Source of the DNA: Nitrosomonas europaea
Lineage (GTDB): Bacteria > Pseudomonadota > Gammaproteobacteria > Burkholderiales > Nitrosomonadaceae
Direction: 5' to 3'
Assembly: GCF_900167395.1 (NCBI RefSeq)
Contig: NZ_FUWK01000010.1
Coordinates: forward strand, 1-32,000
DNA length: 32,000 nt
Below are positions 1 to 19,812 of this stretch, one piece after another. Made by a program: the position numbers and the translations under genes. How positions within the stretch are numbered: position 1 is the first letter of the stretch; every line of letters starts with the position of its first letter. Below the pieces are notes generated by a model. That model was not told the DNA's origin, searched no databases, and saw only the letters and a program-made list of their open reading frames with translations.

Positions 1-325
1 TGCTTTCTTGCATATCTTCGACCGTGTCTGCCTGGAAAATGGTACGGAACATCGCCTGACCCAGCCAAATCACCCCTGGACCAATGGTCAAGTCGAACGC
101 ATGAACCGCACCCTCAAGGAAGCAACCGTCAAACGCTATCATTATGAAAATCATCAACAGTTGCGAGAGCATCTTTACAGCTTCCTGAATGCCTACAACT
201 TCGCCAGGCGACTCAAAACCTTACGAGGACTCACACCTTACGAATACATCATCAAATGCTGGCAAAACGAACCTGAACGTTTTATCATCAATCCATACCA
301 TCACAAAGTGGGACTAAACAGGTAG
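1..325 (+). CDS. DDE transposase (rve/integrase core, IS481-family type), C-terminal fragment; 5' end lies outside the window
   Basis: The frame is open from nt 2. The translation ...HRLTQPNHPWTNGQVERMNRTLKEATVKRYHY...LKTLRGLTPYEYIIKCWQNEPERF... carries the TNGxxER signature and the tail typical of IS481-type transposases. The track 'start' at 8 is a TTG inside the frame. Confidence 0.75.
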   Translation, partial: AFLHIFDRVCLENGTEHRLTQPNHPWTNGQVERMNRTLKEATVKRYHYENHQQLREHLYSFLNAYNFARRLKTLRGLTPYEYIIKCWQNEPERFIINPYHHKVGLNR

Positions 326-992: not shown

Positions 993-1066
993 GCGGGTGT
1001 AGTTCAATGGCAGAACGGTAGCTTCCCAAGCTGCATACGAGGGTTCGATTCCCTTCACCCGCTCCA
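993..1066 (+). tRNA. tRNA-Gly (anticodon CCC)
   Basis: GCGGGTG/CACCCGC acceptor stem, GTAGC-TTCCCAA-GCTGC anticodon arm with CCC, GAGGG-TTCGATT-CCCTT T-arm and an encoded CCA end; 74 nt. Confidence 0.93.
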
Positions 1067-1639: not shown

Positions 1640-2286
1640 TCGAAAGGTGAGCGCCGGCAAATCGGGCTGCCGGATGGTTCACACATCGATCTGAATACCG
1701 ACACAGATATCTCTATTGCCTTTTATGATACTCGCCGCACTGTCGAACTGCATCGTGGCGAGGCTTTGTTTTCCATTAGCCACGATATCCCGCCAGGCCG
1801 TTCCTGGTCGAAGCGGGCGATGCACGCGTGCTGGTTACCAGCACGCAATTCGACGTACGGCGCAACGAAGATCGTGTCATGGTCGCCGTACAGGCAGGGT
1901 CGGTCGAGTTTTCCGCCGGCCCCTGGTGGCGACGCAAGCATGCACTTCTGACGGCGGGCCAGGTTTCAGTGGCATCGCCGCAAGATGGTCTGGTATCTCC
2001 GTACCCTGATCATATCGAGACCATCACGGCCTGGCAGCGGGGGCGTCTGATCTTTCGCGATGTCCCTCTATCCGACGTGGCGGCCGAGCTGAGCCGCTAC
2101 CTGACCCGCCCGCTGCGTGTCGCTGATGCGCGACTGGGGCAACTGCGTATCTCCAGCACGCTGAGCATCGAGACACCGGAAGCAGCCCTGGACATCCTGC
2201 CTGAAATCGCGCCAGTGACCGTTATACGTCATGTCGATGGCGGTGCCGTGCTTGTGAGCTTGTTGAGCTTTCCTCTGAGAGAGTAA
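1640..2286 (+). pseudogene. FecR-family anti-sigma/transmembrane sensor remnant (N-terminally truncated, one frameshift near 1790-1800)
   Basis: One frame reads ...RRQIGLPDGSHIDLNTDTDISIAFYDTRRTVELHRGEALFSISHD. It continues in another frame as ARPFLVEAGDARVLVTSTQFDVRR...ITAWQRGRLIFRDVPLSDVAAELSRY.... These are classic FecR and FecR_C motifs split over two frames. Confidence 0.7.
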
Positions 2287-2829: not shown

Positions 2830-3288
2830 CTATTCCAGCTGGCTCCAATTCGGTTTGCTTGCCTGTATCAATGCGTTCCAGTCGTCTGGCGGGTTTCCGC
2901 GTCCGAGCATCTTTTCGAATATGGTATACGGGTCTGACTTGCTGCCCGATGACCGCAGGGTCTGCTCATCATTGACCCAGGTGTACACGATGACTTTTGC
3001 CTTCGAGTCGTACCGGAAGAACAGCCGGTACCGCCTTCCGAGTTTGGCCCGTCGCCAGTGGCGATAGGTTGGTCCCATGGTATTGCCCTGACGATATTCG
3101 TCGCGCACCGGATCGCCCGGCACCACGTCTTGCATTAGCTGGATCAAGGCCCGGAAGAACTTGACGTTGGTGTTGGATCCGAAGTCCTCCGGGTCGTTCT
3201 CTTGCGCACGCAGCACAGCCGCACGCAACCTCATCAACTGCTCGATCAGGTTGTCGTGGAACAACAGCGTCCAGCCATGCTGTTGCAT
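2830..3288 (-). CDS. yhaV: Type II toxin YhaV-family ribonuclease
   Basis: 152 aa. GRRYRLFFRYDSKAKVIVYTWVNDEQTLRSSGSKSDPYTIFEKMLGRGNPPDDW closely parallels E. coli YhaV (GRYRLFFRY...NDENTLR...KMLKRGHPPADW). The start overlaps the upstream stop (TGATG). Confidence 0.9.
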   Translation of the reverse strand: MQQHGWTLLFHDNLIEQLMRLRAAVLRAQENDPEDFGSNTNVKFFRALIQLMQDVVPGDPVRDEYRQGNTMGPTYRHWRRAKLGRRYRLFFRYDSKAKVIVYTWVNDEQTLRSSGSKSDPYTIFEKMLGRGNPPDDWNALIQASKPNWSQLE

Positions 3289-3605
3289 CAGATTTCTACG
3301 TCCTCATCGAAATCATCGCCCAGGACTACGTTGTGGCCCGTATGCTCCAGCATCGTGCGAATCAGATCTTCCGGCAAACCACGAATGTTCCGGCCAGCCT
3401 CGATATCGCGAGCCAGAAGGGCCAGGAATGCAGCAATGGCGGGATCCTCGTGCCCGGTATCGGCACGGGTAACGATCACTTCGCCGCCACGCAGCTCGAA
3501 CGCAAGCTTGCTGCCAGTATCGGCGCCAAGTGCCTGCCGGATGGATTTGGGCAACGTGATCTGGCCTTTGGAGGTCAGCGTGGCAACTTCATGAATGGTA
3601 GGCAT
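3288..3605 (-). CDS. prlF: Type II antitoxin PrlF/SohA (AbrB/SpoVT fold)
   Basis: 105 aa. The N-terminal LTSKGQITLPKSIRQALG is a SpoVT/AbrB swapped-hairpin motif, and the tail DDFDEDVEI is acidic. The gene sits directly upstream of yhaV and is coupled to it. AGGAG RBS. Confidence 0.85.
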   Translation of the reverse strand: MPTIHEVATLTSKGQITLPKSIRQALGADTGSKLAFELRGGEVIVTRADTGHEDPAIAAFLALLARDIEAGRNIRGLPEDLIRTMLEHTGHNVVLGDDFDEDVEI

Positions 3606-3886: not shown

Positions 3887-5830
3887 ATGAACAGGTCCAA
3901 ACCTTTTTTTCTGTCGAATCTGCTGGTTCAGTGGCTGGCAATGCTCATATTTATGGTCAGCTTGCATGGCACGGCCGCCGCTGCGCCCGCTGATGACGAG
4001 AGGGCGCAGACCATCGTGCATATGCTCGATTACGTAGGCGTGGATTATCCCGAGTTCGTGCAGGACGGCAAGGTACTCAATGCTGAGGAGTACGAGGAGC
4101 AGCGCGAGTTTGCCACGCAGGCCATTACGCTGTTGGAGCAGTTGCCCAAAGTGCCGGAGCAGCCGGCGCTGCAGCAGCAGGCTCACGCGCTGCTGGCACG
4201 TATCGAGGCCAAGGCGCCAGGCAGTGAAGTTTCTGCGTTGGCCAGCCAACTGCGTGCGGGTGTGATTCAGGCGTGGAAGCTCAGCGTGGCGCCGCGTCAG
4301 GCGCCGGATCTGATGTTGGGTGCTAAATTGTTCGCTCAGCACTGTGCTACTTGTCATGGTGCGGAAGGTCATGGCGATGGGCCGCTGGCCAAGGGCATGG
4401 AGCCGGCCCCCAGCAATTTCCATGATGAGGCGCGTATGCGCCAGCGCAGTCTCTATGGCTTCTACAACACCATCACGCTCGGTGTGGGCGGCACGCCGAT
4501 GCGTGCATTTACCGAATTCTCCGAAGCGGATCGCTGGGCGCTTGCTTTCTTTGCAGGCAGTCTGCGCGCCGACCCGGAGGCTGTTGCGCGTGGTGAGGTT
4601 GCATGGCGCGAGGGCCAGGGAAAGGCCGCGTTCGACAGCTTGAAATCGCTGGTTGATCAGGCACCCGGCGATCAGGCCGAGGCCGGCACGGTACTGGATG
4701 CGGTGCGTACCTACCTGACACAGCAGCCGCAGGCGCTACAGGCAGTTGCACCAGCGCCGCTGGCGTTCTCGCGCGCCAAACTCGATGAAGTGGTGCAGGC
4801 CTATACGCGTGGCGACCGTGAAGGCGCACGTCGGTTGGCGATTGCGGCCTATCTGGAAGGTTTCGAGCTGGTCGAATCCGCTCTGGATAATGTGGATGCG
4901 CTGTTACGTGCCGAGGTCGAGCGCGAAATGATGGCACTGCGTGCAGCCATTGGTGACGGCCAGTCTGCCGAAGCTGTGTCAGCTCAGGTTGTTAAAGTCA
5001 AGGCATTGCTCAATCGTGCCGACGACGTGCTGTCGGGCAGCAGTTTGTCGCCAATGACAGCTTTCGTGAGTTCATTGCTGATCTTGCTGCGTGAGGGGTT
5101 GGAGGCGATCCTGGTACTGTCGGCCATTATCGCCTTTGTCATCAAGACCGGACGGCGCGATGCTTTGCCCTACATCCATGCGGGCTGGATCGGTGCGGTG
5201 GTGCTGGGTGTCATCACCTGGGCGGTGGCAAGCTACGTGATCAATATCTCGGGTGCGAACCGTGAACTCACCGAGGGCATCACGGCGCTGCTGGCTGCGG
5301 CAATGCTGCTGTACGTGGGCTGGTGGCTGCACAGTCGCGCGAATGCACAGGCCTGGAGCCGCTTTATCCGCGAGCAGGTAAACGTAGCACTCGGCAAGCG
5401 TACGCTGTGGGCAATGGCTGGCATTTCGTTCCTTGCAGTGTATCGTGAGCTGTTCGAAGTGATCCTGTTTTACGAGGCACTGTGGGTGCAGGCTGGCGTG
5501 GAAGGTCATACTTCAGTACTGTGGGGTATCATGGCCGCAACAGCACTGCTGGTGCTGATCGGCGGCGCCATCCTGCGTTATAGCGTGCGGTTGCCGATCG
5601 GACCGTTCTTTGCGGTTATGTCGGTACTGCTGGCGTTCATGGCTGTAGTGTTCGTCGGTAACGGTGTCGCGGCCCTGCAGGAGGCAGGTATGCTCGATGC
5701 GACGGCGGTGCGCTTCATTTCGCTGCCGCTGCTGGGCATCCATCCGACCGAGCAAGGACTTACGCTGCAGGCGCTGACGCTGTTGCTGATCGCAGGTGGC
5801 TTCTGGTTCAATCGCAGGAAAACGGCGTAG
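3887..5830 (+). CDS. Cytochrome c / FTR1-family high-affinity iron permease fusion protein
   Basis: 647 aa with a signal peptide. The periplasmic region carries the heme c motif CATCHG plus a distal ...GGTPM.... The C-terminal polytopic domain carries two REXXE-type FTR1/EfeU motifs (LREGLEAIL, YRELFEVIL). GGAG RBS. Confidence 0.85.
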   Translation: MNRSKPFFLSNLLVQWLAMLIFMVSLHGTAAAAPADDERAQTIVHMLDYVGVDYPEFVQDGKVLNAEEYEEQREFATQAITLLEQLPKVPEQPALQQQAHALLARIEAKAPGSEVSALASQLRAGVIQAWKLSVAPRQAPDLMLGAKLFAQHCATCHGAEGHGDGPLAKGMEPAPSNFHDEARMRQRSLYGFYNTITLGVGGTPMRAFTEFSEADRWALAFFAGSLRADPEAVARGEVAWREGQGKAAFDSLKSLVDQAPGDQAEAGTVLDAVRTYLTQQPQALQAVAPAPLAFSRAKLDEVVQAYTRGDREGARRLAIAAYLEGFELVESALDNVDALLRAEVEREMMALRAAIGDGQSAEAVSAQVVKVKALLNRADDVLSGSSLSPMTAFVSSLLILLREGLEAILVLSAIIAFVIKTGRRDALPYIHAGWIGAVVLGVITWAVASYVINISGANRELTEGITALLAAAMLLYVGWWLHSRANAQAWSRFIREQVNVALGKRTLWAMAGISFLAVYRELFEVILFYEALWVQAGVEGHTSVLWGIMAATALLVLIGGAILRYSVRLPIGPFFAVMSVLLAFMAVVFVGNGVAALQEAGMLDATAVRFISLPLLGIHPTEQGLTLQALTLLLIAGGFWFNRRKTA

Positions 5831-6086
5831 TTACTGTACTTCGCACCGAAGGTCGATGACCGGCTGTAACCGTGATGCTCCATGTTCAGAAAAGCGCGGT
5901 TCTGCTGATATCCCCATGTATAATTGGGCCGTTTGCGGGTTATAAGTGGCTTTCTCATTTAGTCTGTGGCAGCTTCTTTTACCCGTTCATCATGTGGCTG
6001 TTAAACCAGTCCTGTCTTTGTCCGATGGAACTACTCGTACCGAGAGTGATTCTTTAACTACTACAAAAAACTTCAGAAAGAAACTG

Positions 6087-6680
6087 ATGGCTATTCGTTC
6101 AATCAGATCACTGTTGTGCAGCCTGTTCGCAGTTTTATCGTTGCTGATACCTTTTGGCGCAATTTCAGCGGAAAAGACCACGGTCATCCCGGAGTCTCTG
6201 AAAATCCTTGGCTGGGTAGAGTTTACCCGTCTGGAGCCCTGGGGAATCAAGACGCCTGCCCGGATCGATACCGGCGCCAATACTTCTTCCATGAGTGCTC
6301 GTGATATCAATGTATTCAAGAGAAATGGCAAGACATGGGTCAGGTTTACTTTTGACTTCAAGAAGGGTACGGCGGAGCGTTCCATCGAGATCGAGCGTCC
6401 GCTGGTGCGTATGGTTAAAATCAAGCAGCATGATGGTCCCTCGCAGGAGCGCCCGGTGATCTCCATGGAGATTTGTCTGGCTGATGAAATCCGGGAGGCC
6501 GAATTCGATCTGATCGACCGGCGTGCTTTGAATTACCCGGTACTGCTCGGGCGCAAGGCGCTGGCCGGATATGTGGTAGTCGATCCTGCACGTGCCTATC
6601 TCACCAAGGCAGTGTGTGGCCATACCAAAAAGAAAAAAAAGGGCAGTGAACCAGCTGATCCCGGGCAGCAGCACGAATGA
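6087..6680 (+). CDS. Secreted DUF785 / 'ATP-dependent zinc protease' (retropepsin-like, RimB-type) protein
   Basis: 197 aa counted from the internal ATG. It has a signal peptide (MAIRSIRSLLCSLFAVLSLLIPFGAISA) and the motifs GWVEFTRL...ARIDTGANTSSMSA and ...NYPVLLGRKAL typical of the family. The stop overlaps the next start (ATGA). Confidence 0.75.
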   Translation: MAIRSIRSLLCSLFAVLSLLIPFGAISAEKTTVIPESLKILGWVEFTRLEPWGIKTPARIDTGANTSSMSARDINVFKRNGKTWVRFTFDFKKGTAERSIEIERPLVRMVKIKQHDGPSQERPVISMEICLADEIREAEFDLIDRRALNYPVLLGRKALAGYVVVDPARAYLTKAVCGHTKKKKKGSEPADPGQQHE

Positions 6681-8209
6681 GAAAACTGCATCTGTATCTG
6701 CTGGCATTCATACTGTGTCTTGCGGGATTGGGGCTGGCTTATTACAAAGCTGCGGTAATCGGCCTGCCTTTGACTGCCTCTGAAGAGGCGCAGGTATGGA
6801 ATATCGAGGCCCGTATCAGTTTTCGTGCCAAACCGGACAGTGCAATCAAGGTAACCCTGCCGCTGCCTTTCAATCCTGCCGGTTATTCCATCCTCGATGA
6901 GGATTTCGTCAGTGCAGATTACGGACTGGCAATCGAACAGGATAACACTGGCCGTGTTGCGCGCTGGGCCAAGCGAAGGGCGCAGGGTAAACAGTTACTG
7001 TTTTACCGGGCCGTATTGTTCGAAAACGAGGAAGTTGCACCCAAATCGGATGCCGCACCGGTTTACCCGAAACCACCCGAGTACCCAGAGAATCTGGCAC
7101 CGGTGATTCAGGGAGTGCTGGACAAGGCGCGCCAGCAGTCAGCCGATACCATTTCCTTTACACAGCGGGTGATTGAACAATTGAATGCGGCAGCATCGAT
7201 ACCGGAGCTGAAATTGCTGGTGAAGCATGTCAGCCGTACGCGTAATCTGGCTAAAACCCTGAGCTGGGTGCTGGCCGGTGCCCGTATTCCATCCCGTGTC
7301 ATTCGGGGATTACGCTTGCAGGATGACAAGGACTACGCGGATCTGGAACATTTTCTGCAGGTTTATGATGGTGAGCAGTGGCGCACCCTGAATATCAAAG
7401 ATGGCCAGGAGGGCCTGCCGTCGAATTTCATCATCTGGCAGATCGATGATGACCGTTCCTTCTCGATTGAGGGGGCTTCCGAATCCGGAATCCAGTATTC
7501 AGTCGCCAGAACCTTACAGGAAACCGTCAACATTGCCGGGTTCCGTTCGGCGGAGAAAGGCTCCCATCTGATGGATTTTTCGCTGTATTCCTTACCGGTG
7601 CATACCCAGAACGTGTACAAGGTGTTGCTGATGGTGCCGCTGGGGGCGCTGGTCGTCGTGTTCATGCGTAACATCATCGGAATCCGTACGTTTGGTACAT
7701 TCATGCCCATTCTGATCGCACTGGCTTTCCGTGAAACAGAATTGTTCTGGGGATTGATTCTGTTCAGCCTGATCGTGGGGCTCGGGCTGCTGTTGCGCGC
7801 TTATGTCGAACAGCTGAAGCTGTTGCTGGTTCCCCGCCTGGCGGCGGTGCTGACCATGGTTGTCCTGCTGATGGCGGGGGTCAGCGTCATCATGCACAAG
7901 CTCGGGTTCGAAATGGGGTTGTCCGTGGCCCTGTTTCCGATGGTGATCATGACGATGACGATCGAGCGCATGTCGCTGACCTGGGAAGAGGCCGGACCGG
8001 CGGAGGCATTCAAGCAGGTGTCGGGCAGTTTGCTGGTGGCAGTGATCGGGTACCTGGCCATGAATATCAGCGAGTTCCAGTATATGTTTTTCGTATTTCC
8101 TGAACTGTTACTGGTGTTGCTGGCTGTGATTCTGCTGCTGGGCCGCTACTCCGGCTACCGGCTGATGGAGCTCTGGCGTTTCCGTGCGTTCGCACGGAAC
8201 AAGCCGTAA
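6677..8209 (+). CDS. Inactive transglutaminase-like domain fused to a 7TM domain (UUP1-type membrane protein)
   Basis: 510 aa. An N-terminal TM helix is followed by an extracytoplasmic domain of about 300 aa and a hydrophobic block of about 7 helices (LMVPLGALVVVFMRNIIGIRTFGTFMPILIALAF...). It sits between the DUF785 and ATP-grasp genes, as in the known conserved cassette. Confidence 0.7.
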   Translation: MRKLHLYLLAFILCLAGLGLAYYKAAVIGLPLTASEEAQVWNIEARISFRAKPDSAIKVTLPLPFNPAGYSILDEDFVSADYGLAIEQDNTGRVARWAKRRAQGKQLLFYRAVLFENEEVAPKSDAAPVYPKPPEYPENLAPVIQGVLDKARQQSADTISFTQRVIEQLNAAASIPELKLLVKHVSRTRNLAKTLSWVLAGARIPSRVIRGLRLQDDKDYADLEHFLQVYDGEQWRTLNIKDGQEGLPSNFIIWQIDDDRSFSIEGASESGIQYSVARTLQETVNIAGFRSAEKGSHLMDFSLYSLPVHTQNVYKVLLMVPLGALVVVFMRNIIGIRTFGTFMPILIALAFRETELFWGLILFSLIVGLGLLLRAYVEQLKLLLVPRLAAVLTMVVLLMAGVSVIMHKLGFEMGLSVALFPMVIMTMTIERMSLTWEEAGPAEAFKQVSGSLLVAVIGYLAMNISEFQYMFFVFPELLLVLLAVILLLGRYSGYRLMELWRFRAFARNKP

Positions 8210-8213
8210 TACC

Positions 8214-9164
8214 ATGTTCGGGTTTCTGGAGAAACTCAGGCAGAGCGGCGTCGTCGGTATGAATCAGCGCAATGCTGATTTCATTCTGCGTTACAACAAG
8301 CGCTCGCTTTATCCGCTGGTGGACGACAAACTGCGAACCAAATACCTGGCAACTGCATCCGGTATTGCGGTGCCCGAACTGTATGGTGTCATCGAAATCC
8401 AGCACGATGTCGCCAGTTTTCCAGATATCGTCAAGGATCACGAGGATTTCGTGATCAAACCGGCACATGGTTCAGGAGGAAACGGTATCTGTGTCATTAC
8501 CGGACGTCTCAACAACCGTTATCGACAGAGCAATGGCGATCTGCTGACCGAGGAAGACATCGAATATCACGTCTCGAACATACTCAGTGGCCTCTACAGC
8601 CTGGGTGGACAGCCTGATCAGGCACTGATCGAATATCGGGTCAAATTCGATCCGCTGTTCGAAACGGTTTCCTACCGCGGCGTACCGGATATTCGTACCA
8701 TCGTGTTCAGAGGGATTCCGGTGGCCTGCATGGTGCGCCTGCCAACTCGTATGTCGGATGGTAAAGCCAATCTTCATCAAGGTGCCGTGGGAGCGGGTAT
8801 CGATCTGATGACCGGTCGCACTACCCATGCCATCTGGCAGAATTATCCGATTGAACAGCATCCGGATACCGGTGCTACCATCAGCGGGCTCGCAATTCCT
8901 CACTGGTATAAATTGCTGACACTGGCAGCACAGTGCCACGATCTGGTCGGACTGGGGTATCTGGGCGTGGATGTCGTGCTCGACCGGGAACTGGGCCCGC
9001 TGGTACTGGAGCTCAATGCACGTCCGGGTCTTTCCATTCAGATAGCCAACCGCAGGGGCATGAGCCGTTTGCTGGAGAAAATCGCCAAACTGGAAGAAAT
9101 CCCTGCTGCGGCAGCAGATCGTGCCACATTGGGACAGGAATTATTTCTGGAAAATCAGACCTGA
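8214..9164 (+). CDS. Alpha-L-glutamate ligase-like (RimK-related) ATP-grasp protein
   Basis: 316 aa starting at MFGFLEKLRQSGVVGMNQRNADFILRYNKRSLYPLVDDKLRTK.... It contains ATP-grasp core motifs (FVIKPAHGSGGNGI, LGYLGVDVVLD...GPLVLELNARPGLSIQIAN). The start lies 5 nt after the upstream stop. Confidence 0.8.
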   Translation: MFGFLEKLRQSGVVGMNQRNADFILRYNKRSLYPLVDDKLRTKYLATASGIAVPELYGVIEIQHDVASFPDIVKDHEDFVIKPAHGSGGNGICVITGRLNNRYRQSNGDLLTEEDIEYHVSNILSGLYSLGGQPDQALIEYRVKFDPLFETVSYRGVPDIRTIVFRGIPVACMVRLPTRMSDGKANLHQGAVGAGIDLMTGRTTHAIWQNYPIEQHPDTGATISGLAIPHWYKLLTLAAQCHDLVGLGYLGVDVVLDRELGPLVLELNARPGLSIQIANRRGMSRLLEKIAKLEEIPAAAADRATLGQELFLENQT

Positions 9165-9237
9165 TTTTCTGTATTTACGGCTATGGTCGCAGGTAATGTT
9201 CTTATCCTTACCCTTCGCGCAAGATCAGAGGTTCTTA

Positions 9238-9338
9238 TTCCATTCCCAAATCAAAAATGACACGAAGGCGAGCCGCAGACAGTATAAATAATACGGCCAG
9301 GCGAAGCCGACAAAGTTAGTTTTGATTTAGAAATGGAA
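9238..9338. repeat. MITE-like/REP-like palindromic element (about 101 bp) between two convergent genes
   Basis: The left arm TTCCATTCCCAAATCAAAA (9238-9256) pairs with the right arm TTTTGATTTAGAAATGGAA (9320-9338), matching 17 of 19 positions. The interior holds two AGGCGA(G/A)GCCG units. The element abuts the pta stop codon (9339-9341). Its ends resemble the TCT(A/G)AA termini of the other repeats. Confidence 0.5.
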
Positions 9339-11426
9339 TTAGCGTTGACTGGCCGCCTGTACGGCAGTCAAGGCAATGGTATAAACAATATCTTCCACCG
9401 ATGCGCCGCGTGACAGATCATTCACCGGCTTACGCAGGCCTTGCAACATGGGGCCGACACTGACTACGTTGGCGCTGCGCTGTACGGCTTTGTAAGTGGT
9501 ATTGCCGGTGTTGAGATCCGGAAAGATAAACACGGTAGCGCGCCCTGCTACCGGGCTGCCAGGTGCTTTTTGCCGGCCCACGCTGGCAATCGCAGCGGCA
9601 TCGTATTGCAGAGGGCCGTCGATCAGCAGATCGGGACGTGCCAAACGGGCAAGTCGAGTGGCTTCGCGTACTTTTTCCACTTCTTGCCCGCTGCCGGAAT
9701 CACCGGTGGAATAACTCAACATGGCTACGCGTGGCTCGATACCCAGTGCCTGTGCCGACGCGGCACTTTGCAGTGCGATATCGGCCAGTTCTTCAGCCGT
9801 AGGATTAGGATTGACCGCACAATCTCCATACACGACGACTTGTTCTGGCAGCAGCATAAAGAAGACAGAGGAGACAAGTTTAAAACCCGGTGCTGTTTTG
9901 ATCAGTTGCAAAGCGGGGCGAATGGTATTGGCGGTGGTATTGATTGCGCCGGAGACGAGGCCATCGACTTCACCCGTCGCCAGCATCATGGTGCCCAGCA
10001 CGACATTGTCCTCCAGTTGCGCCAGCGCCATGGGTTCATTTAATCCTTTGTGCTTGCGTAACTCCACCATAGCCGCCACATAATTTCGGCGCACTTTTTC
10101 CGGATCAATCATTTCAAGCCCTTCGGGCAGGGTAATGCCACGTGCGCTGGCCACCGCTTTTACTGCATCAGGTTTTGCCAGCAACACGCAACGGGCAATG
10201 CCACGTTCCTGGCAAATGGTTGCCGCTTGTATGGTGCGGGGTTCGTACCCTTCCGGTAACACGATACGGCAATCAGCCTCTTGCGCCCGCTTGACCAGGC
10301 GATAGCGGAAGGCGGGGGGAGAAAGGCGTTGTTCCTGTGGCTCACCACAGCGCTTAACCAATAATTCCTGACGAATATGATTCGCCACAAAGTTGGTGAT
10401 GCGCTCAGCACGCTCGTGGTCATCCAGCGGAATCTCCCGATTCATGCGATGCAGGTTGGCGGCGGTATCGTATGAATTGGTCGTGACGGTACAAACTGGT
10501 AATCCTTTTGTCAGTGCACCTTTGCACAATTCCAGCACGCGCGGATCTGGCGGAAAATCACTGCACAGCAGTAACCCCGCCAGTGGTACACCATTCAGTA
10601 CGGCAAGGCTGGCGGCCATGACAATATCGTCCCGGTCACCAGGTGTTACCACCAGAACTCCGGGACGTAACAATGTCACTGAATTGGGGGCGGCACTGGC
10701 AAACAGCACGATATCCTGTACACGGCGTTTTTCACTATCCCCCGCGTTTACGATCTGAGCTTGCAGCTGTGTGACAACGTCTGCCATGCGAGGAGCATTC
10801 AAGGAATCCTCCCAGGGAATACAACCCAGAATCTGAAAGCTGGATTGATGGAACAGGGTGGAATGGTTTTTTAGCTGTTCAAAAAGATCATCAGAATGAT
10901 CGGTGCGAATTTTATTGAGGATTACGCCCAATAGACGAGGATTCTGAGCACCACCAAAAAATTGAGCCTGAATTTCAATACGATCTGTAATTGCCTGCAG
11001 TGCATCATCTTCGGCAGATGAAACGAGGATGATATCAGCATCAAGGCTGCTGGCCAGCCTGGTATTCACGCGTGAGGCATAGCTGACATGGCGTGTAGGT
11101 ACCATACCTTCTACCACCATCACATCATAACCTTCAGAGGCTTGCTTAAATCGCCGGACGATATCTTCCATCAAGTCGTCAATCTGACCTTCACCCAGCA
11201 GATGTTCAACTGTAGCTAACGGAAGCGGAGCGGGTGGTGCCAGGCCCAACGTTCGCGAGATCAGTTCAGTGGAATATTCAAGCTTGGAATTACCGGGATG
11301 TTGCTGAGCGACAGGTTTATAAAAACCCGCTTTAAGGCCGCCATATTCGAGCGCCCGCACCAATCCTAAACTGGTTGAAGTGAGTCCGACACCAAAGCCG
11401 GTAGAGGTAACAAAGAAAGTATGCAT
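9339..11426 (-). CDS. pta: Phosphate acetyltransferase (long form with N-terminal P-loop/DRTGG region)
   Basis: 695 aa. The N-terminus TSTGFGVGLTSTSLGLVRALEYGGLKAGFYKPVAQ parallels E. coli Pta. The C-terminal PTA_PTB domain shows ...VDGLVSGAINTTANTIRPALQLIKT...DCAVNPNPTAEELADIA.... Confidence 0.92.
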   Translation of the reverse strand: MHTFFVTSTGFGVGLTSTSLGLVRALEYGGLKAGFYKPVAQQHPGNSKLEYSTELISRTLGLAPPAPLPLATVEHLLGEGQIDDLMEDIVRRFKQASEGYDVMVVEGMVPTRHVSYASRVNTRLASSLDADIILVSSAEDDALQAITDRIEIQAQFFGGAQNPRLLGVILNKIRTDHSDDLFEQLKNHSTLFHQSSFQILGCIPWEDSLNAPRMADVVTQLQAQIVNAGDSEKRRVQDIVLFASAAPNSVTLLRPGVLVVTPGDRDDIVMAASLAVLNGVPLAGLLLCSDFPPDPRVLELCKGALTKGLPVCTVTTNSYDTAANLHRMNREIPLDDHERAERITNFVANHIRQELLVKRCGEPQEQRLSPPAFRYRLVKRAQEADCRIVLPEGYEPRTIQAATICQERGIARCVLLAKPDAVKAVASARGITLPEGLEMIDPEKVRRNYVAAMVELRKHKGLNEPMALAQLEDNVVLGTMMLATGEVDGLVSGAINTTANTIRPALQLIKTAPGFKLVSSVFFMLLPEQVVVYGDCAVNPNPTAEELADIALQSAASAQALGIEPRVAMLSYSTGDSGSGQEVEKVREATRLARLARPDLLIDGPLQYDAAAIASVGRQKAPGSPVAGRATVFIFPDLNTGNTTYKAVQRSANVVSVGPMLQGLRKPVNDLSRGASVEDIVYTIALTAVQAASQR

Positions 11427-11756: not shown

Positions 11757-12812
11757 TCAATCGATCCAGAATGCACCGTGTTGACGCTGCAAATACCAGA
11801 GTGAGTTTTCCTCTTCACGACATACACCGTAGCGAAAGGAAGGCGGCAATCCGGGAAACTGGAAACGCAGATCGATGAACCAAACGCAGATGTTTTGTGC
11901 AGGATGGTCGATGCCATCCAGAACCGGGAATTGTGCGAACTGACGGAACGGTGCCAGAACCGGCTGCTGCCAGGCTTCGTGCGACAGGGCTGCATACTCG
12001 GGAGAGCGGCTGTCGTGCAGGCGGTATGATCGCCAGTTTGCCATTGCCAGCGGGCGATAGGCTGCAGTCATGTTACATAACAGATTACTTGTATCAGTAC
12101 ACTTAAGCAGAGTGCTCCGTCTCAGATTGATTCGTGCGACATGCAGCTCGGTGTCATCACGAATAATCACCATCTGATTGAAAGGCGACAAAGGTTGTGG
12201 CAATACACTGACTGTCTGCTGATCGAGCATTTTTTCAGCGGCATGCACTTTCCCCGCCTGCATGGCTTCCTCGTGCAGCATCCATAAAAATGATACATAC
12301 GCCACGATACCGATCAGTGAAGCCACTGCATAGACCCGTTTTGTCGGGAAAATGGCACTCAGGACAAGTCCGGCAAGGATGATCGCAGTGAACCACGGAT
12401 CGATGACGAACACGAGGGGCAGAGAAAATCGCCAGGTGGAAAACGGCGCCAGCAGCATCAGACCGTATGCTGTCACCAGATCGCCCAGAATATGGATCAT
12501 GATGCCCAGGCACGCCGGTACGAAGAATGATCGCCATGGGTAATGTCCCCCGGTAAACCGGGAAAACAGATGCGCCAGCAGGAATGCCCAGAAAGGCAGC
12601 ATCACGAGCGAATGCGTCGGCCCCTGATGCCAGTTGAGATAAGTCAGGGTATCGATCAGCCGCAAGACGACATCGCTATCCGGAAAAGCGGCCGCTACAC
12701 TTCCGGCAACGATACGTTCCCGCAACGGCAATCGCTGAGCATACTGAGTATGCGAAGAAGTAACGGCTCTCATCAGCAACGCACCGCTCAACGTATGTGT
12801 CACAGGGTCCAT
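11757..12812 (-). CDS. Membrane-bound metal-dependent hydrolase (YdjM/DUF457-like) with a C-terminal extension
   Basis: 351 aa counted from MDPVTHTLSGALL..., the typical family N-terminus. His-rich TM segments are present (LNWHQGPTHS, IMIHILGD). It lies 58 nt downstream of tetR on the same strand. Confidence 0.6.
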   Translation of the reverse strand: MDPVTHTLSGALLMRAVTSSHTQYAQRLPLRERIVAGSVAAAFPDSDVVLRLIDTLTYLNWHQGPTHSLVMLPFWAFLLAHLFSRFTGGHYPWRSFFVPACLGIMIHILGDLVTAYGLMLLAPFSTWRFSLPLVFVIDPWFTAIILAGLVLSAIFPTKRVYAVASLIGIVAYVSFLWMLHEEAMQAGKVHAAEKMLDQQTVSVLPQPLSPFNQMVIIRDDTELHVARINLRRSTLLKCTDTSNLLCNMTAAYRPLAMANWRSYRLHDSRSPEYAALSHEAWQQPVLAPFRQFAQFPVLDGIDHPAQNICVWFIDLRFQFPGLPPSFRYGVCREEENSLWYLQRQHGAFWID

Positions 12813-12869
12813 CTTTCTCTCCTGTGCCAGACGCACACTCGGGTGCGTCCGAGACTGCAGTTTCCAGGT

Positions 12870-13652: not shown

Positions 13653-14345
13653 TTACTGCTTTATTTCTACTACTCCCCCTGCCCGTGCTATTCCCCTGAT
13701 GATACGTCCGGTGTGGTTGCGCACCTGGACGACTTCTCCTGCGGCCGCGGCAGCAAGCGCCTCGCCTTCCATGCTGACGGCAAATCCTGCTCCGGTTGCA
13801 GTGAGCCGTACTTTCTGCCCGCGCGAGATGACGTGCGGCGCACGTAACTGGTGCGTGCGGATGGGTTGTCCGGAAGCGAGGAATGTCGTTGCTACTTTGC
13901 CGATAACCTGATCGGGATCGGTGGCTACTTCTCCGGGAATACGCACGAGATCTGCTTCTTTACTAACGATGTCCTGAGCCTCCAGCTGTTTTCCCATACT
14001 GACCGGCTGTGCAGCATGCACGACACGGGTAATCACTTCGATTTCAACCGGAACATACAGTGTCCAGGTGGCTTCATCCTGACAGCGTACCCCCACTGAG
14101 AACTTTCCCCATACCCGTCCTCCCGTCGGCAGAAACGGCTGGGGCTGGCGGCATGAGCGCGGTGTCTGGCGTGTATCCGGTCTGTTCGATTTGATGATGA
14201 CTTTACCGGGCAGATGGCGGGTTTCATTGCGCACAAAGTCGTTTACGACCTCGAGTATCGTCGATGCGGATGAATCTTCGCTGGCGGTTGCCGCCATCGG
14301 GGTCAGGGCATACACGAGAACGATCAGTAAAAATTTTATTTTCAT
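13653..14345 (-). CDS. flgA: Flagellar basal-body P-ring formation chaperone FlgA
   Basis: 230 aa counted from the ATG (MKIKFLLIVLVYAL..., signal peptide). The C-terminal SAF-type motif reads GQKVRLTATGAGFAVSMEGEALAAAAAGEVVQVRN.... It is divergent from flgB. The track start at 14384 is a TTG. Confidence 0.85.
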   Translation of the reverse strand: MKIKFLLIVLVYALTPMAATASEDSSASTILEVVNDFVRNETRHLPGKVIIKSNRPDTRQTPRSCRQPQPFLPTGGRVWGKFSVGVRCQDEATWTLYVPVEIEVITRVVHAAQPVSMGKQLEAQDIVSKEADLVRIPGEVATDPDQVIGKVATTFLASGQPIRTHQLRAPHVISRGQKVRLTATGAGFAVSMEGEALAAAAAGEVVQVRNHTGRIIRGIARAGGVVEIKQ

Positions 14346-14379
14346 GATGGACAAGGTTGATACCAGAGGACTGGTTACG

Positions 14380-14413
14380 GGCAATTTTTGCCGCCAGCGG
14401 CAATTTTTGCCGC
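14380..14413. promoter_or_regulatory. Tandem 15-bp direct repeat (GGCAATTTTTGCCGC x2, 19-bp period), each copy internally palindromic; candidate regulator site in the flgA-flgB divergent region
   Basis: Copies at 14380-14394 and 14399-14413 are identical. Each holds the GGCAA-TTT-TTGCC dyad. They lie 35-70 bp upstream of the flgA ATG. Confidence 0.35.
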
Positions 14414-14518
14414 TACGTTCCGCATGGTATCGCTGCCCCGCCCCGGTTAACCTGGAAATTGAAGGGTGATCATGTGCCAGTTTGATTCATTGACCGTAAG
14501 GAAACGGTCGATTCAGCC

Positions 14519-14533
14519 TGGCACGATTCCTGC
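14519..14533 (+). promoter_or_regulatory. Sigma54 (RpoN) -24/-12 promoter for the flgB operon
   Basis: TGGCACGattcCTGCt versus the consensus TGGCACG-N4-TTGCW. The spacing is correct and there is one mismatch. It lies 35 nt upstream of the flgB ATG. Confidence 0.6.
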
Positions 14534-14567
14534 TTAATGATTAGTGACTACTTTGCAGGAGGAAAGC

Positions 14568-14981
14568 ATGATCAGCAAACTGGAAAATCTGGTTGGTTTT
14601 AACCAGAGAGCACTGGGATTACGGGCAACCAGACAGGAATTACTGTCCGGGAATATCGCCAATGCCGATACCCCGGGTTTCAAGGCAAGAGATTTCGATT
14701 TTGCCAAAGCGATGCAAAACGTTCAATCGCCGCAGCGGGTACAACATTCCTCTCTGGCGACTACAGCACCCGGACATATCGGTATGGCAGATTTCAGGTC
14801 GATCACCTCCGTACCAAAGCAGTACCGTGTGCCGCAGCAACCCAGTATCGATGGTAATACCGTCGATATGGACACCGAACGGATGCAGTTTATGGATAAC
14901 GCCATGCGCTATGACGCCGGGCTGACATTTATCAGCGGCCAGTTCCGTACCTTGTTATCAGCCATCAAAGAAGGAAATTAA
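14568..14981 (+). CDS. flgB: Flagellar basal-body rod protein FlgB
   Basis: 137 aa from the ATG preceded by AGGAGG. Contains the rod-family motif LLSGNIANADTPGFKARD. Confidence 0.9.
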   Translation: MISKLENLVGFNQRALGLRATRQELLSGNIANADTPGFKARDFDFAKAMQNVQSPQRVQHSSLATTAPGHIGMADFRSITSVPKQYRVPQQPSIDGNTVDMDTERMQFMDNAMRYDAGLTFISGQFRTLLSAIKEGN

Positions 14982-14986
14982 CAGCC

Positions 14987-15391
14987 ATGTCCCTATTCAG
15001 CGTATTCAATGTAGCCGGTTCATCCATGGCAGCCCAGTCGCAGCGACTGAATGTCGTGGCCAGCAATCTTGCCAATGCAGACAGTGCTACCAGTTCGACT
15101 GGAGAAGCCTATCGTTCCCGCCAAGTGGTGTTTCGCACGATCGATGTCACGGCAGATAAGGCGAAGGGAGTAAAAGTGGCAGGTGTGGTGAACGACCCTT
15201 CACCCATGCGGGTGGTGTACGACCCGAAGCATCCGATGGCGAATGAAAAGGGGTACGTCACTCTGCCCAATGTCAACGTGGTGGATGAAATGGTCAACAT
15301 GATGTCGGCTTCGCGCTCCTATCAGAACAGTGTCGACATGATGAACGTGACCAAAACACTGCTGCAGAAAGCGTTAACAATCGGTCAATAA
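14987..15391 (+). CDS. flgC: Flagellar basal-body rod protein FlgC
   Basis: 134 aa. VVASNLANADS... plus the C-terminal SASRSYQNSVDMMNVTKTLLQKAL are typical of FlgC. Confidence 0.92.
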   Translation: MSLFSVFNVAGSSMAAQSQRLNVVASNLANADSATSSTGEAYRSRQVVFRTIDVTADKAKGVKVAGVVNDPSPMRVVYDPKHPMANEKGYVTLPNVNVVDEMVNMMSASRSYQNSVDMMNVTKTLLQKALTIGQ

Positions 15392-15407
15392 AAGGAGAGA
15401 ACGCACC

Positions 15408-16079
15408 ATGAGTCAGGTACAGAACAATTCCAGCGTATCCGAGCTGCTGGCTTCGAATAGCGGCAGTATCAAGTCTTATCGCAAAGACGAGGAGGATCCT
15501 CAGGATCGGTTTCTCAAGCTGCTGGTGACACAAATGCAAAACCAGGATCCGCTCAGTCCGATGGACAATGCGGAAGTGACCAGTCAGATGGCGCAGATCA
15601 GCACCGTGAGCGGTATCGACAAACTCAATACCACGCTGGAGAAACTGGTGGCGGATTCCGATGCTCGGCGTTCGTTTGAAGCAGCCACTATGATCGGCCG
15701 TGGTGTGCTGGTTCCGGGAACCGACATGCAACTGGAAAATCAGGCGGCGATAGGCGGGTTTGAGCTGGCTGAGTCGGTGGACAAGCTTACCGTCACCGTC
15801 AAGGATAGTGCCGGCATTACCGTGCGTGAAATCGATCTTGGCGCACAGGCTGCAGGTGTAGGCACCTTCGTCTGGGATGGTATGGCCAATAACGGGAACG
15901 CAGCGGCGGATGGACAGTACAGCTTCGCACTGAAGGCGATACGCGCTGACAAGGAAGTATCTTCCTCGGCCCTGGCGTTCGGTTCAGTCAGCAGCGCTCA
16001 GGCAGGTAAGGATGGCGCTTTGCTGGAAGTGGGCCGGCTGGGATATGTCGGTATGGATGCAGTTAAGAAAATATTCTGA
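15408..16079 (+). CDS. flgD: Flagellar hook-capping/assembly protein FlgD
   Basis: 223 aa. Contains the FlgD signature FLKLLVTQMQNQDPLSPMDNAEVTSQMAQISTVSG. Confidence 0.92.
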   Translation: MSQVQNNSSVSELLASNSGSIKSYRKDEEDPQDRFLKLLVTQMQNQDPLSPMDNAEVTSQMAQISTVSGIDKLNTTLEKLVADSDARRSFEAATMIGRGVLVPGTDMQLENQAAIGGFELAESVDKLTVTVKDSAGITVREIDLGAQAAGVGTFVWDGMANNGNAAADGQYSFALKAIRADKEVSSSALAFGSVSSAQAGKDGALLEVGRLGYVGMDAVKKIF

Positions 16080-16093
16080 GTGGAGAGTAAATC

Positions 16094-17326
16094 ATGGGTT
16101 TTCAACACGGATTGAGTGGATTAAAGGCAGCTTCAGCCAAGCTGGATGTCACGGGTAACAATATCGCCAATGCCAACACGGTTGGATTCAAGCAATCACA
16201 AGCGCAGTTTGCTGATGTTTACGCCAATGCGCTGGGAGGCGGCAGGAATCAGATCGGGATTGGTACTCAACTGGCAGCTGTCGCGCAGGAATTTAATCAG
16301 GGGAATGTGACACCTACCAATAACCCGCTGGATGTCGCAATTACCGGCAATGGTTTTTTTCGGATGGATAACAACGGTTCGATCAGTTTTACCCGTAACG
16401 GCCAGTTTCATCTGGATAAGGACGGGTTTCTGGTCAATGCGAGCAATTACAACGTTACTGGTTTCGGAGCGGATGCATCCGGCCAGATTATCCCCAATAT
16501 CCCGGTCAATCTGCGGTTGCCTACAGCAGATATGACGCCTAATCCGACTACCAGTTTCATGACAGGGGTCAATCTGGATGCGCGTGCTGATGTAGTGACT
16601 GATCCTTTTAATGTAGCTAATCCAGATACCTATACCCATTCTACTTCGGGAGAAATTTTTGACAGTTTTGGTAATTCCCATATATTAAATTTATATTTCC
16701 AGAAAACAGCTGCATCCACTTGGGGCGTATATACAGCCGTGGATGGTACAGTAGTAGATCCCTCTACTGGATTATCTGGTACGGATAGCCCAATCACTTT
16801 GAGCTTTAATCCATCCGGGATCATGACATCAACCGGGTCAAGTACGATTAATGTGGCTGCTTCTGTACTGGGTGCGGGCGTTTCACCGCTTGCTTTTGAG
16901 CTTGATTTAACCCGTTCCACCCAGTTTGGCAGCAAATTCGGGGTGAATGTGATGAGCCAGGATGGATTTGCTTCGGGTCGCCTGGCCGGGTACAGCATTT
17001 CTGATGATGGCCAGATCAGAGCCAGTTACTCCAATAACGTCACGCGCACAGTCGGTCAACTTGTACTGGCAGGTTTTTCCAATCCTAACGGTCTCAAGCC
17101 GCTGGGAAGCAATCAGTGGGGTGAGACGGCTGAATCCGGATTGCCGTTGGTGGGGACTCCGGAGACGGGTGTGCTGGGCTCACTGCAATCTTCAGCAGTG
17201 GAAGAATCCAATGTTGATCTGACGACCGAGCTGGTCACCCTGATCATGACGCAGCGGGTCTATCAGGCCAATGCCAAGACCATCGAGACACAGGATGCAG
17301 TAATGCAGACCATCATGAATATCTGA
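16094..17326 (+). CDS. flgE: Flagellar hook protein FlgE
   Basis: 410 aa. GNNIANANTVGFKQS at the N-terminus, FTRNGQF, and the C-terminal ESNVDLTTELVTLIMTQRVYQANAK. Confidence 0.92.
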   Translation: MGFQHGLSGLKAASAKLDVTGNNIANANTVGFKQSQAQFADVYANALGGGRNQIGIGTQLAAVAQEFNQGNVTPTNNPLDVAITGNGFFRMDNNGSISFTRNGQFHLDKDGFLVNASNYNVTGFGADASGQIIPNIPVNLRLPTADMTPNPTTSFMTGVNLDARADVVTDPFNVANPDTYTHSTSGEIFDSFGNSHILNLYFQKTAASTWGVYTAVDGTVVDPSTGLSGTDSPITLSFNPSGIMTSTGSSTINVAASVLGAGVSPLAFELDLTRSTQFGSKFGVNVMSQDGFASGRLAGYSISDDGQIRASYSNNVTRTVGQLVLAGFSNPNGLKPLGSNQWGETAESGLPLVGTPETGVLGSLQSSAVEESNVDLTTELVTLIMTQRVYQANAKTIETQDAVMQTIMNI

Positions 17327-17365
17327 TGGCTTTCTGTTTAACCCTGATTAGGTGACGATTCAAAA

Positions 17366-18109
17366 ATGGACAGACTGATTTACACCGCGATGACCGGTGC
17401 ATTGCACACGATGACTCAGCAGGCAACGGTTTCTCATAATCTGGCCAATGCTTCGACTACGGGTTTCCGGGCTCAGACTGACGCTTTTCGGGCAGTGCCC
17501 GTTTATGGGGAATCACTGCCCACCCGGGCATTCGTGCTGGATTCGACGACGGGTGCGGATTTCACGCCGGGTGCGATCCAGCAGACCAACCGCCCGCTGG
17601 ATGTGGCGGTGCAGGGTTCCGGCTGGATTGCGGTACAGCTTGAAAATGGGGAAGAAGCCTATACCCGGCACGGCAATCTCAAAATGGACGCCAATGGCAT
17701 TCTCCAGACGCAACAGGGCTTCAACATCAAGGGAGAATCCGGTCCCATTACCATTCCACCCGATAGTCGCATCGCGATTGGCAAGGATGGCAGTGTTTCA
17801 GTGCTGCCGTCAGATTCGAGAATGACCGCCGTTTCGATCGTCGGACGGATCAAGCTGGTCGATCCGCCGGCAGAGCAGCTTGTTCGGGGAGAGGATGGCC
17901 TGTTCCGGCTGAAAGAGGGAGGTCAGGCGCCTGTCAGTGAAAAAGTGGCCCTGATCGATGGCGCGCTTGAAAGCAGCAATGTCAATGTAATCAGCGAGAT
18001 GGTGAAGATGATCACTCTTGCGCGGCAGTTCGATATGCAAATGAAGATGCTCGAAAATGCCCAGCAGAATGCCCAGCAGGCAGGTGAAATCATGACACTG
18101 AGAGGCTGA
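17366..18109 (+). CDS. flgF: Flagellar basal-body rod protein FlgF
   Basis: 247 aa. HNLANASTTGFRAQ, YTRHGNL and the C-terminal SNVNVISEMVKMITLARQFDMQ. Confidence 0.9.
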   Translation: MDRLIYTAMTGALHTMTQQATVSHNLANASTTGFRAQTDAFRAVPVYGESLPTRAFVLDSTTGADFTPGAIQQTNRPLDVAVQGSGWIAVQLENGEEAYTRHGNLKMDANGILQTQQGFNIKGESGPITIPPDSRIAIGKDGSVSVLPSDSRMTAVSIVGRIKLVDPPAEQLVRGEDGLFRLKEGGQAPVSEKVALIDGALESSNVNVISEMVKMITLARQFDMQMKMLENAQQNAQQAGEIMTLRG

Positions 18110-18176
18110 TACGGGTAGATGCCGGGATGTCGTGACATTGCTGGTAAATTTTTAATTACGCTGAAAGGATAACGAT

Positions 18177-18959: not shown

Positions 18960-19086
18960 TCCATCTGATGTCAGATTTTATCGATCGGATATATCAATGG
19001 GAGACTCAGGCTTTTCGGTGTTTTCACCGGATCGTGCAGCGCCTGAGTTTGTGGATGGACAGTGTTCAGGTGTCATGGAATCGTTT

Positions 19087-19791: not shown

Positions 19792-19812
19792 GCATAACGG
19801 GAACATATCATC

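Follow-up and report, generated by a model that had tools for sequence, protein, structure and literature searches.

A probable rloABC operon in Nitrosomonas europaea, encoding a predicted periplasmic aspartic protease, a membrane protein with an inactive transglutaminase-like domain and a cytoplasmic ATP-grasp ligase

The DNA analysed here, referred to as the window, is a stretch of 32,000 nucleotides (nt) from Nitrosomonas europaea (assembly GCF_900167395.1, contig NZ_FUWK01000010.1, positions 1–32,000). It contains a cassette of three closely spaced genes on the forward strand that is almost certainly orthologous to rloABC of Pseudomonas aeruginosa, as a more distant member of that group. 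The cassette would encode a secreted protease (RloA), an inner-membrane protein (RloB) and an ATP-grasp ligase (RloC), from families that were reportedly first described in a comparative-genomics paper by Iyer et al. in 2009. The Nitrosomonas copy belongs to a known, recently characterised system and introduces no new principle. A first-pass annotation, made from the sequence, had recognised the three families and regarded them as a conserved trio; searches with hidden Markov models support every one of the assignments (PF05618, PF14400/PF14402 and PF14397/TIGR02291), and the trio was recovered when the gene neighbourhoods of other genomes were surveyed (see below). The same annotation held that no substrate or physiological role had been shown for these proteins. 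This statement is outdated, as phenotypes in P. aeruginosa and cleavage of poly-glutamate in vitro have since been published (Lormand et al., 2025; PMC12239564).

The P. aeruginosa operon (PA14_41690/41710/41730, corresponding to PA1768-PA1767-PA1766) was described by Lormand et al. (2025) in mBio (PMC12239564). In that organism RloA is a retropepsin-like aspartic protease bearing a signal peptide, RloB consists of a periplasmic inactive transglutaminase domain joined to seven transmembrane (7TM) helices, and RloC, an ATP-grasp protein, is located in the cytoplasm. Growth without salt, biofilm formation, beta-lactam tolerance and normal cell shape all depend on three RloA paralogues that are redundant with one another. 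Loss of all of them is lethal in low-salt medium and is rescued by deletion of either rloB or rloC; in P. aeruginosa it is the RloB/RloC products that make the absence of the protease harmful. In vitro RloA cuts runs of at least eight glutamates; its catalytic aspartate is required for function, and its poly-glutamate-binding residues are required in vivo. A search of the P. aeruginosa proteome returned no periplasmic protein with an encoded poly-glutamate run, and deletion of rimB shows no genetic interaction with rloA mutations (Lormand et al., 2025; PMC12239564).

As the first-pass annotation had proposed, a pathway in which a peptide or polyamino-acid product is made, exported and trimmed fits the published genetics and the present results best, and such a mechanism is put forward here tentatively, at slightly less than even confidence. 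RloC, using ATP, would build an acidic alpha-linked amino-acid chain, most likely poly-alpha-glutamate, either free or on a carrier, and would do so on the side of RloB that faces the cytoplasm. The product would then be moved or presented to the periplasm by the 7TM module, held or bound there by the inactive transglutaminase domain of RloB and trimmed by RloA. Without the protease the RloB/RloC product would accumulate and harm the envelope, chiefly in dilute medium: an excess of polyanion in the periplasm would increase osmotic and Donnan pressure there and so account for death under such conditions. This mechanism draws on the published rloB/rloC epistasis, on the cleavage of runs of eight or more glutamates, on the profile neighbours of RloC and on the strong constraint seen in the 7TM module of RloB.

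RloA matches the Pfam family PF05618 Zn_protease (E-value 2.8e-39). Among the NCBIfam models RloA3, one of those named 'retropepsin-like aspartic peptidase', scores best (144 bits, cutoff 210), followed by RloA (115, cutoff 280), RloA2 and RimB (NF052261; 93.9, cutoff 200), and the protein falls below the curated cutoff on every one of these. The nearest solved structures are 9g58 (7.8e-26) and 9g59, both of RloA (Lormand et al., 2025; PMC12239564), and Legionella 2pma. For all three proteins homologues were taken from a scan with RloB, limited to one genome per species, which found at least 599 loci; the best 80 were examined, giving alignments of 81 sequences for RloB (the window and 80 others) and of 61 for RloA (the window and 60 others). 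A DTG motif (D61-T62-G63, read as GAT ACC GGC) occupies the catalytic position, its aspartate and glycine are invariant in all 61 sequences, and the P. aeruginosa equivalent of D61, D48, is needed for function (PMC12239564). Direct reading of the 197-residue sequence finds no HEXXH zinc motif, and the solved homologues of the PF05618 family are aspartic, retropepsin-like dimers. Taken together, the DTG motif, the lack of HEXXH and the solved homologues point to a retropepsin-like aspartic enzyme and not a zinc enzyme; the Pfam name Zn_protease is a misnomer, and the zinc label that the first-pass annotation had carried over with it (Zn_protease/DUF785) is withdrawn.

The substrate-binding residues of RloA were mapped using 9g58, in which the catalytic aspartate is separated by 66 residues from the arginine of an RPV motif and by 89 from that of a TDR motif. 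These spacings equal those between D48, R114 and R137 of the published protein. In this way R59, R108, K111, K113, R122 and R145 align with the poly-glutamate-binding residues K46, R92, K95, K97, R114 and R137. R122, R145 and a further arginine, R156, are invariant in the 61 sequences, and R108 occurs in all but one of them. The distance from D61 to R122 is 61 residues, compared with 66 in 9g58, and reflects a flap that is five residues shorter than that of the P. aeruginosa protein. Conservation is at least 90% for each of two cysteines, C130 and C177 (60/61 for the latter), which correspond to a disulfide pair that is found in periplasmic members of the family and is missing from RimB and other cytosolic ones (PMC12239564).

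The N-terminus of RloA (MAIRSIRS-LLCSLFAVLSLLIPFG-AISA/EK) has two arginines, a hydrophobic core of 16 residues with a peak hydropathy of 2.28, and small residues preceding a conserved EK. These form recognisable n, h and c regions with no lipobox, and a comparable N-terminus is present in 59 of the 60 RloA homologues that adjoin rloB, the exception being cut by a contig end. The Sec signal peptide noticed in the first-pass annotation is upheld by these heuristics; here and below, localisation is called from hydropathy, the -3/-1 rule, the positive-inside rule and conservation. RloA is thus predicted to be a periplasmic, homodimeric, retropepsin-like aspartic protease with a basic substrate channel and a stabilising disulfide.

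After C177 the C-terminal tail of RloA carries a run of five lysines (K181–K185), a feature that sets it apart from the P. aeruginosa protein. Runs of five to eight lysines occur at this position only in the Nitrosomonas homologues (L001–L010); the tails of other lineages are variable and some are acidic. A poly-lysine tail on a putative poly-glutamate protease is a suggestive combination. Part of the run is encoded by a tract of eight adenines. A -1 slip on this tract, fusing RloA to RloB, was considered and rejected: the rloB frame is stopped by a TGA at 6647–6649, ahead of the rloB start. Use of the C-terminal glutamate of RloA as a RimK-style acceptor was likewise discarded, as tails tending to end in glutamate are limited to Nitrosomonas.

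RloB is matched by PF14400 Transglut_i_TM (3.7e-48) and PF14402 7TM_transglut (1e-106). The match to the NCBIfam model 'osmotic stress tolerance membrane protein RloB' is full-length, residues 3–507 corresponding to positions 5–507 of its 508 (4.4e-140), with a score of 468 that lies below the narrow cutoff of 900. The protein is 85–91% identical to those of Nitrosomonas eutropha and other Nitrosomonas. Hydropathy places a first transmembrane segment (TM1) at residues 4–22, followed by a loop of approximately 283 residues, seven segments between 312 and 488, and a C-terminal tail with six lysines or arginines. The loop charges of the seven C-terminal segments fit an out-to-in orientation, and a predicted topology with the N-terminus inside, the large loop outside and the C-terminus inside fits this arrangement.

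In the AlphaFold2 (AF2) model of RloB the predicted local distance difference test (pLDDT) score is 80–90 in the loop domain and 44–72 in the 7TM region. Foldseek aligns the loop domain with transglutaminase-like structures at a probability of 0.95–1.0; the closest is 3isr, a transglutaminase-like putative cysteine protease (E-value 2.9e-8), followed by 3kd4, the transglutaminase 4xz7 and TglA (9crn). The fold matches that of these transglutaminases and transglutaminase-like proteases, and it differs from them in that the Cys-His-Asp triad is missing. Cysteine is absent from the loop, the sole one in the protein being C14 in TM1, and over the 81 sequences no column of the loop has a conserved cysteine or histidine (the best are 1/81 and 50/81, respectively); the external domain is free of cysteine in 77 of the 81. 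The absence of the triad follows from this lack of cysteine and of any conserved cysteine or histidine column, and the external domain is therefore predicted to be a binding module and not an active enzyme of the transglutaminase class. Both the architecture anticipated in the first-pass annotation, a large external transglutaminase-like domain with a 7TM block, and its suspicion that the catalytic residues had been lost agree with these results (one plus seven helices by hydropathy, 3isr as the nearest fold, no catalytic residues).

The 7TM module and its basic cytoplasmic tail are the most constrained part of RloB. At least 95% conservation is reached by 36% of positions in this region against 8% in the external domain, and the conserved charges include R331, R352, E353, R374, R387, E430, R431, E438, E476, R490, R495 and E498. 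The parts of RloB with the highest conservation, the loop 430–446 (TIERMSLxWEE) and the C-terminal tail (GRYxGYRLxELWRFR), face the cytoplasm. Neither Foldseek nor a profile search found a relative of the 7TM module in the PDB, and no similarity to transporters was seen.

These properties of RloB could also be accommodated without export. RloC might modify a cytoplasmic part of RloB, or some other cytoplasmic or membrane target, and RloB might be a regulated channel or sensor that is toxic when unchecked and is restrained by RloA through a separate periplasmic acidic substrate or a partner of the external RloB domain. The concentration of conserved residues on the cytoplasmic side is what a docking or modification site would show; the 7TM module has no detectable resemblance to transporters, the epistasis data fit a regulatory chain equally well, and pairs of rloB and rloC occur without an adjacent protease gene. 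This signalling or scaffold arrangement is nevertheless considered unlikely. RimK-type ligases extend C-terminal alpha-carboxylates, and the C-terminus of RloB is basic with an unconserved very end. The lack of an encoded periplasmic poly-glutamate run in the P. aeruginosa proteome points to a product that is made (PMC12239564), and the retention of the basic channel in all 61 RloA proteins encoded beside rloB argues for a common acidic substrate tied to RloB and RloC.

RloC scores 592 bits against TIGR02291 'alpha-L-glutamate ligase-like', above the cutoff of 314, and matches PF14397 ATPgrasp_ST (2.4e-94). Hydropathy detects no hydrophobic segment, transmembrane helix or signal sequence, in agreement with the cytoplasmic location that had been assigned to it at the outset. 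Every RloC in the alignment keeps the ATP-grasp motifs KPxxGSGGxG and DxxLE(L)NxRPG unchanged. In a Foldseek search with its AF2 model (pLDDT 88) the nearest folds are E. coli RimK (5zct), a poly-alpha-L-glutamate peptides synthetase, then ArgX/LysX and cyanophycin synthetase, with D-Ala-D-Ala ligases close behind. Among solved proteins a sequence profile recovers only RimK, cyanophycin synthetase and the tubulin polyglutamylase TTLL7, and all three are ligases that form amino-acid polymers. RloC is thus predicted to be a soluble cytoplasmic ATP-grasp ligase of the RimK and cyanophycin-synthetase kind. The split topology described in the first-pass annotation, with a periplasmic protease (by signal-peptide heuristics), a bridging membrane protein and a cytoplasmic ligase, is borne out for the cassette as a whole.

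The relationship to RimK raises the question of the RimK/RimB(/RimA) system for polyglutamylation of ribosomal protein S6. Common to both systems is the pairing of an ATP-grasp ligase and a retropepsin-like aspartic protease that acts on poly-alpha-glutamate. Among solved proteins RimK is closest to RloC, and RloA and RimB are homologues; RimK synthesises poly-alpha-glutamate, with stimulation by RimB. Unlike the rlo proteins, all Rim proteins are cytoplasmic and have no membrane component, and RimB has neither a signal peptide nor the disulfide pair. RloC scores 44.5 bits against the RimK family TIGR00768 (cutoff 143.4) and 20 against PRK10446 (cutoff 331), and RloA is also below the RimB cutoff as given above. 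By these scores, and by the signal peptide and cysteine pair of RloA, the cassette appears to lie outside the RimK/RimB system.

The fold of RloC has a bearing on another alternative, in which RloC would ligate an amino acid to a peptidoglycan precursor or an envelope glycoconjugate, RloB would flip or bind it and RloA would edit it. Pfam calls the family of RloC 'sugar-transfer associated ATP-grasp', and D-Ala-D-Ala ligases are among the close fold matches of the protein. The effects on cell shape, beta-lactam sensitivity and osmotic lysis in P. aeruginosa, and the position of the Vibrio orthologues within the VxrAB cell-wall-damage regulon (PMC12239564), would suit a role in the cell wall, as would the scoring of the Shewanella vesiculosa rloB homologue as a hyper-vesiculation gene, the mutant of which over-produces membrane vesicles. 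Set against this, RloA needs at least eight consecutive glutamates, and the residues that bind them are required in vivo and are conserved in Nitrosomonas; the nearest profile neighbours of RloC are RimK, cyanophycin synthetase and TTLL7 and not Ddl or Mur enzymes; and no glycosyltransferase or cell-wall gene is linked to the operon in the window or in the loci inspected. Such a cell-wall function is accordingly regarded as quite improbable.

The arrangement of the genes is strongly preserved. A rloC gene lies directly 3' of rloB on the same strand in all 80 loci, with a median gap of 1 nt, a gap of 10 nt or less in 64 and an overlap in 38. A rloA gene lies directly 5' of rloB in 60, with a median gap of 18 nt and, in 24 cases, an ATGA-type overlap as in the window. 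The 20 loci without rloA include two with too little upstream sequence to judge; the other 18, which have only unrelated housekeeping genes at that position and no substitute protease, include members of the Woeseiaceae, Lysobacterales/Xanthomonadales, Ectothiorhodospiraceae, Aquisalimonas and Steroidobacter. Median identity to homologues from outside Nitrosomonas rises along the operon (RloA 40%, RloB 47%, RloC 59%). From these comparisons rloB and rloC appear to be the invariant core, and the protease a frequent but separable accessory that can be encoded elsewhere; the latter fits P. aeruginosa, which keeps two more RloA genes elsewhere. The tight coupling of three genes seen by the first-pass annotation is consequently stronger for rloB and rloC than for rloA and rloB.

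This synteny, extending over many families of Proteobacteria, stands against chance adjacency of the three genes. A mobile defence or toxin module has been considered along with it: the operon adjoins an apparent insertion of approximately 4.9 kb containing a YhaV-type toxin–antitoxin pair, and the harm done by RloB and RloC on loss of the protease superficially resembles a toxin and its antidote. In six other Nitrosomonas genomes, however, the operon occupies the same tRNA-Gly locus free of any insertion, and both explanations are judged extremely improbable. A reading as a defence system was also rejected on the grounds that PADLOC gave no hit for RloA, RloB or RloC and that the chromosomal position is stable.

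Within the window the stop codon of rloA and the start of rloB share an ATGA, and the TAA of rloB, ending at 8209, is separated from the rloC ATG by 4 nt (8210–8213); both junctions had been reported in the first-pass annotation and are visible in the sequence. The rloA start used here coincides with residue 1 of the N. eutropha homologue. Predicted Shine–Dalgarno pairing at the three starts is -0.9, -2.8 and -3.5 kcal/mol, compared with a mean of -3.0, and none beats the window background. This poor pairing is compatible with a putative translational coupling of rloB and rloC. No sigma-70 consensus or sigma-70-like promoter was found in 5700–9450. A block upstream of rloA that is conserved in N. 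eutropha and strain HPC101 may serve the operon as a promoter or leader. The sequence GGAACT...TCTTTA, likewise upstream of rloA, was considered as a sigma-E-like promoter and abandoned, since its spacers in the window and in N. eutropha are not of equal length (2 nt difference).

The correspondence with the P. aeruginosa operon can be summarised as follows. Both have the same three families in the order A-B-C on a single strand; both RloA proteins have a signal peptide, the DTG motif, the cysteine pair and the basic poly-glutamate-binding residues; and in both RloB has TM1, an inactive periplasmic transglutaminase domain and 7TM, and RloC is a cytoplasmic ATP-grasp protein. The host of the window, a betaproteobacterial ammonia oxidiser, lies outside the discussion of the published work. 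The full-length alignment of RloB, the shared hallmarks and the synteny are the reasons for proposing orthology in spite of the low model scores, and we take the NCBIfam 'equivalog' and 'exception' cutoffs for RloA and RloB to be tuned to Pseudomonas.

Several points weigh against orthology or against the make-export-trim mechanism. RloA and RloB remain below the curated NCBIfam cutoffs. The relation between RloC and RimK is distant (phmmer E-value ~1e-3, profile E-value ~2e-5), and the Foldseek margin of RimK over ArgX/LysX, cyanophycin synthetase and the D-Ala-D-Ala ligases is small, so the chemistry of RloC is not readable from its fold. Export by RloB is an assumption, as the 7TM model is poor and resembles no known transporter. 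The existence of 18 genomes with rloB and rloC and no adjacent protease gene means that a protease gene in cis is dispensable for the system, and perhaps any protease at all. The experimental basis comes entirely from organisms other than Nitrosomonas, no RloC product has been detected in any organism, and the physiological substrate is left open by the published study (PMC12239564). The suggestion in the first-pass annotation of a peptide pathway crossing the membrane therefore stands in part: the split topology is supported and the genetics are compatible with it, with export and trimming as the hypothetical steps.

Literature searches by names and locus tags found no work after 2025 resolving the RloC product. 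Text searches on RloA, RloB or RloC also returned papers on other subjects, among them one on a Campylobacter jejuni genome and one on the Menshen antiphage system. Such searches can mislead, because 'Rlo' also denotes restriction-linked open reading frames (ORFs) and RloC also denotes an anticodon nuclease.

A parallel for the proposed logic is provided by the PgsBCA/CapBCA system of Bacillus with PgdS/CapD, in which poly-gamma-glutamate is polymerised at the membrane in an ATP-dependent manner, the product is extracytoplasmic and a dedicated extracytoplasmic hydrolase acts on it. The likeness would be one of analogy only. PgsB is Mur-ligase-like and not an ATP-grasp enzyme, the linkage is gamma and not alpha, and the membrane proteins are unrelated to RloB; no homology to PgsBCA/CapBCA turned up in the searches made, none of which was aimed at that system. 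A bolder and rather doubtful extension of the make-export-trim mechanism would see RloB and RloC as a new kind of trans-envelope machine that couples polymerisation of alpha-glutamate in the cytoplasm to delivery into the periplasm. The 7TM module would then be a new kind of polypeptide exporter and the dead transglutaminase domain a holder of poly-glutamate; the polyanion would set the osmotic and Donnan balance and the mechanics of the envelope, in the manner of osmoregulated periplasmic glucans, with RloA tuning its length and the poly-lysine tail of the Nitrosomonas enzyme capturing the substrate electrostatically.

Table 1. Features of the rloABC cassette and of its surroundings in the window.
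Feature	Coordinates	Strand	Description	Basis
rloA	6087..6680	+	197 amino acids (aa) from ATG 6087, ~169 aa after signal peptide removal	ORF list
predicted Sec signal peptide of RloA	6087..6170	+	MAIRSIRSLLCSLFAVLSLLIPFGAISA / EK	n, h and c regions; no lipobox
catalytic DTG of RloA	6267..6275	+	D61-T62-G63	GAT ACC GGC read in sequence
poly-Lys run of RloA	6627..6641	+	K181–K185, C-terminal tail after C177	read in sequence
rloB	6677..8209	+	510 aa, inner-membrane protein	ORF list
periplasmic transglutaminase-like domain of RloB	6758..7606	+	residues 28–310	AF2, Foldseek
7TM module and basic cytoplasmic tail of RloB	7607..8206	+	residues 311–510	hydropathy, conservation
rloC	8214..9164	+	316 aa from ATG 8214	ORF list
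upstream block	6038..6059	+	TACCGAGAGTGATTCTTTAACT; putative promoter or leader element	alignment: conserved with N. eutropha and strain HPC101
transposase-like ORF	8-325	+	ending ...NHPWTNGQVERMNRTLKE...; just upstream of tRNA-Gly	sequence reading
tRNA-Gly(CCC)	993-1066			
FecR-like ORFs, overlapping	1460-1951 and 1828-2286	+	first ORF searched: partial PF04773, 2.8e-10	Pfam
YhaV-family endonuclease toxin ORF and small upstream ORF	2830-3288 and 3288-3605	-	toxin PF11663, 3.9e-58	Pfam
cytochrome c–FTR1 iron permease fusion	3887-5830	+	647 aa; PF00034 and PF03239	Pfam
pta, phosphate acetyltransferase	9339-11426	-	AAA_26, DRTGG, PTA_PTB; convergent with rloC
YdjM-family membrane protein gene	11757-12836	-	beyond pta

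The region upstream of the operon differs from that of related strains. In six other Nitrosomonas genomes the tRNA-Gly(CCC) gene ends approximately 95 nt upstream of rloA. In the window the two are far apart, a degenerate copy of the tRNA-Gly 3' end is present at ~5970–5995, and about 4.9 kb appears to have been inserted between them. Since those six genomes have the operon at tRNA-Gly without the insert, the operon is the resident and the insert the newcomer. No integrase was seen inside the insert. It contains two overlapping ORFs that together resemble a FecR-like sensor gene broken by a frameshift and probably non-functional; the YhaV-family toxin, for which the small ORF upstream looks, on reading its translation, like an AbrB/PrlF-like antitoxin, so that the two would form a toxin–antitoxin pair; and a gene for a cytochrome c–FTR1 fusion, followed on its 3' side by a terminator-like hairpin at 5926–5952. 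The fusion gene is missing at this position in other Nitrosomonas genomes and is unrelated to the rlo operon. On the far side of the tRNA, the ORF at the start of the window looks like a C-terminal fragment of a DDE (rve-type) transposase.

Downstream of rloC, pta and the YdjM-family gene show no sign of a functional link to the rlo operon. Approximately 4.5 kb beyond rloC a flagellar region begins (13653–24621), with flgA on the reverse strand and a flgD-E-F-G-H-I-J-K-L cluster on the forward strand. A flagellar-mutant exopolysaccharide screen in P. aeruginosa yielded suppressor insertions in PA1766–PA1768 (PMC7314104); in the window, the nearness of the rlo operon to flagellar genes is probably a coincidence.

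The operon is widespread in the Proteobacteria, with at least 599 species-level genomes matched, and the poly-glutamate-binding channel of RloA is conserved far outside Pseudomonas. Together with this conserved channel, the invariance of the rloB–rloC core with its putative translational coupling, the tighter constraint on the 7TM module than on the transglutaminase-like domain of RloB, and the polymer-forming nature of the nearest solved profile relatives of RloC sharpen the question of which product RloC forms and by what route it would cross the membrane. This question belongs to the whole family and not to the window in particular. For Nitrosomonas itself, ammonia oxidisers of wastewater and soil meet large osmotic swings, which makes the operon a plausible determinant of envelope stress in these organisms.

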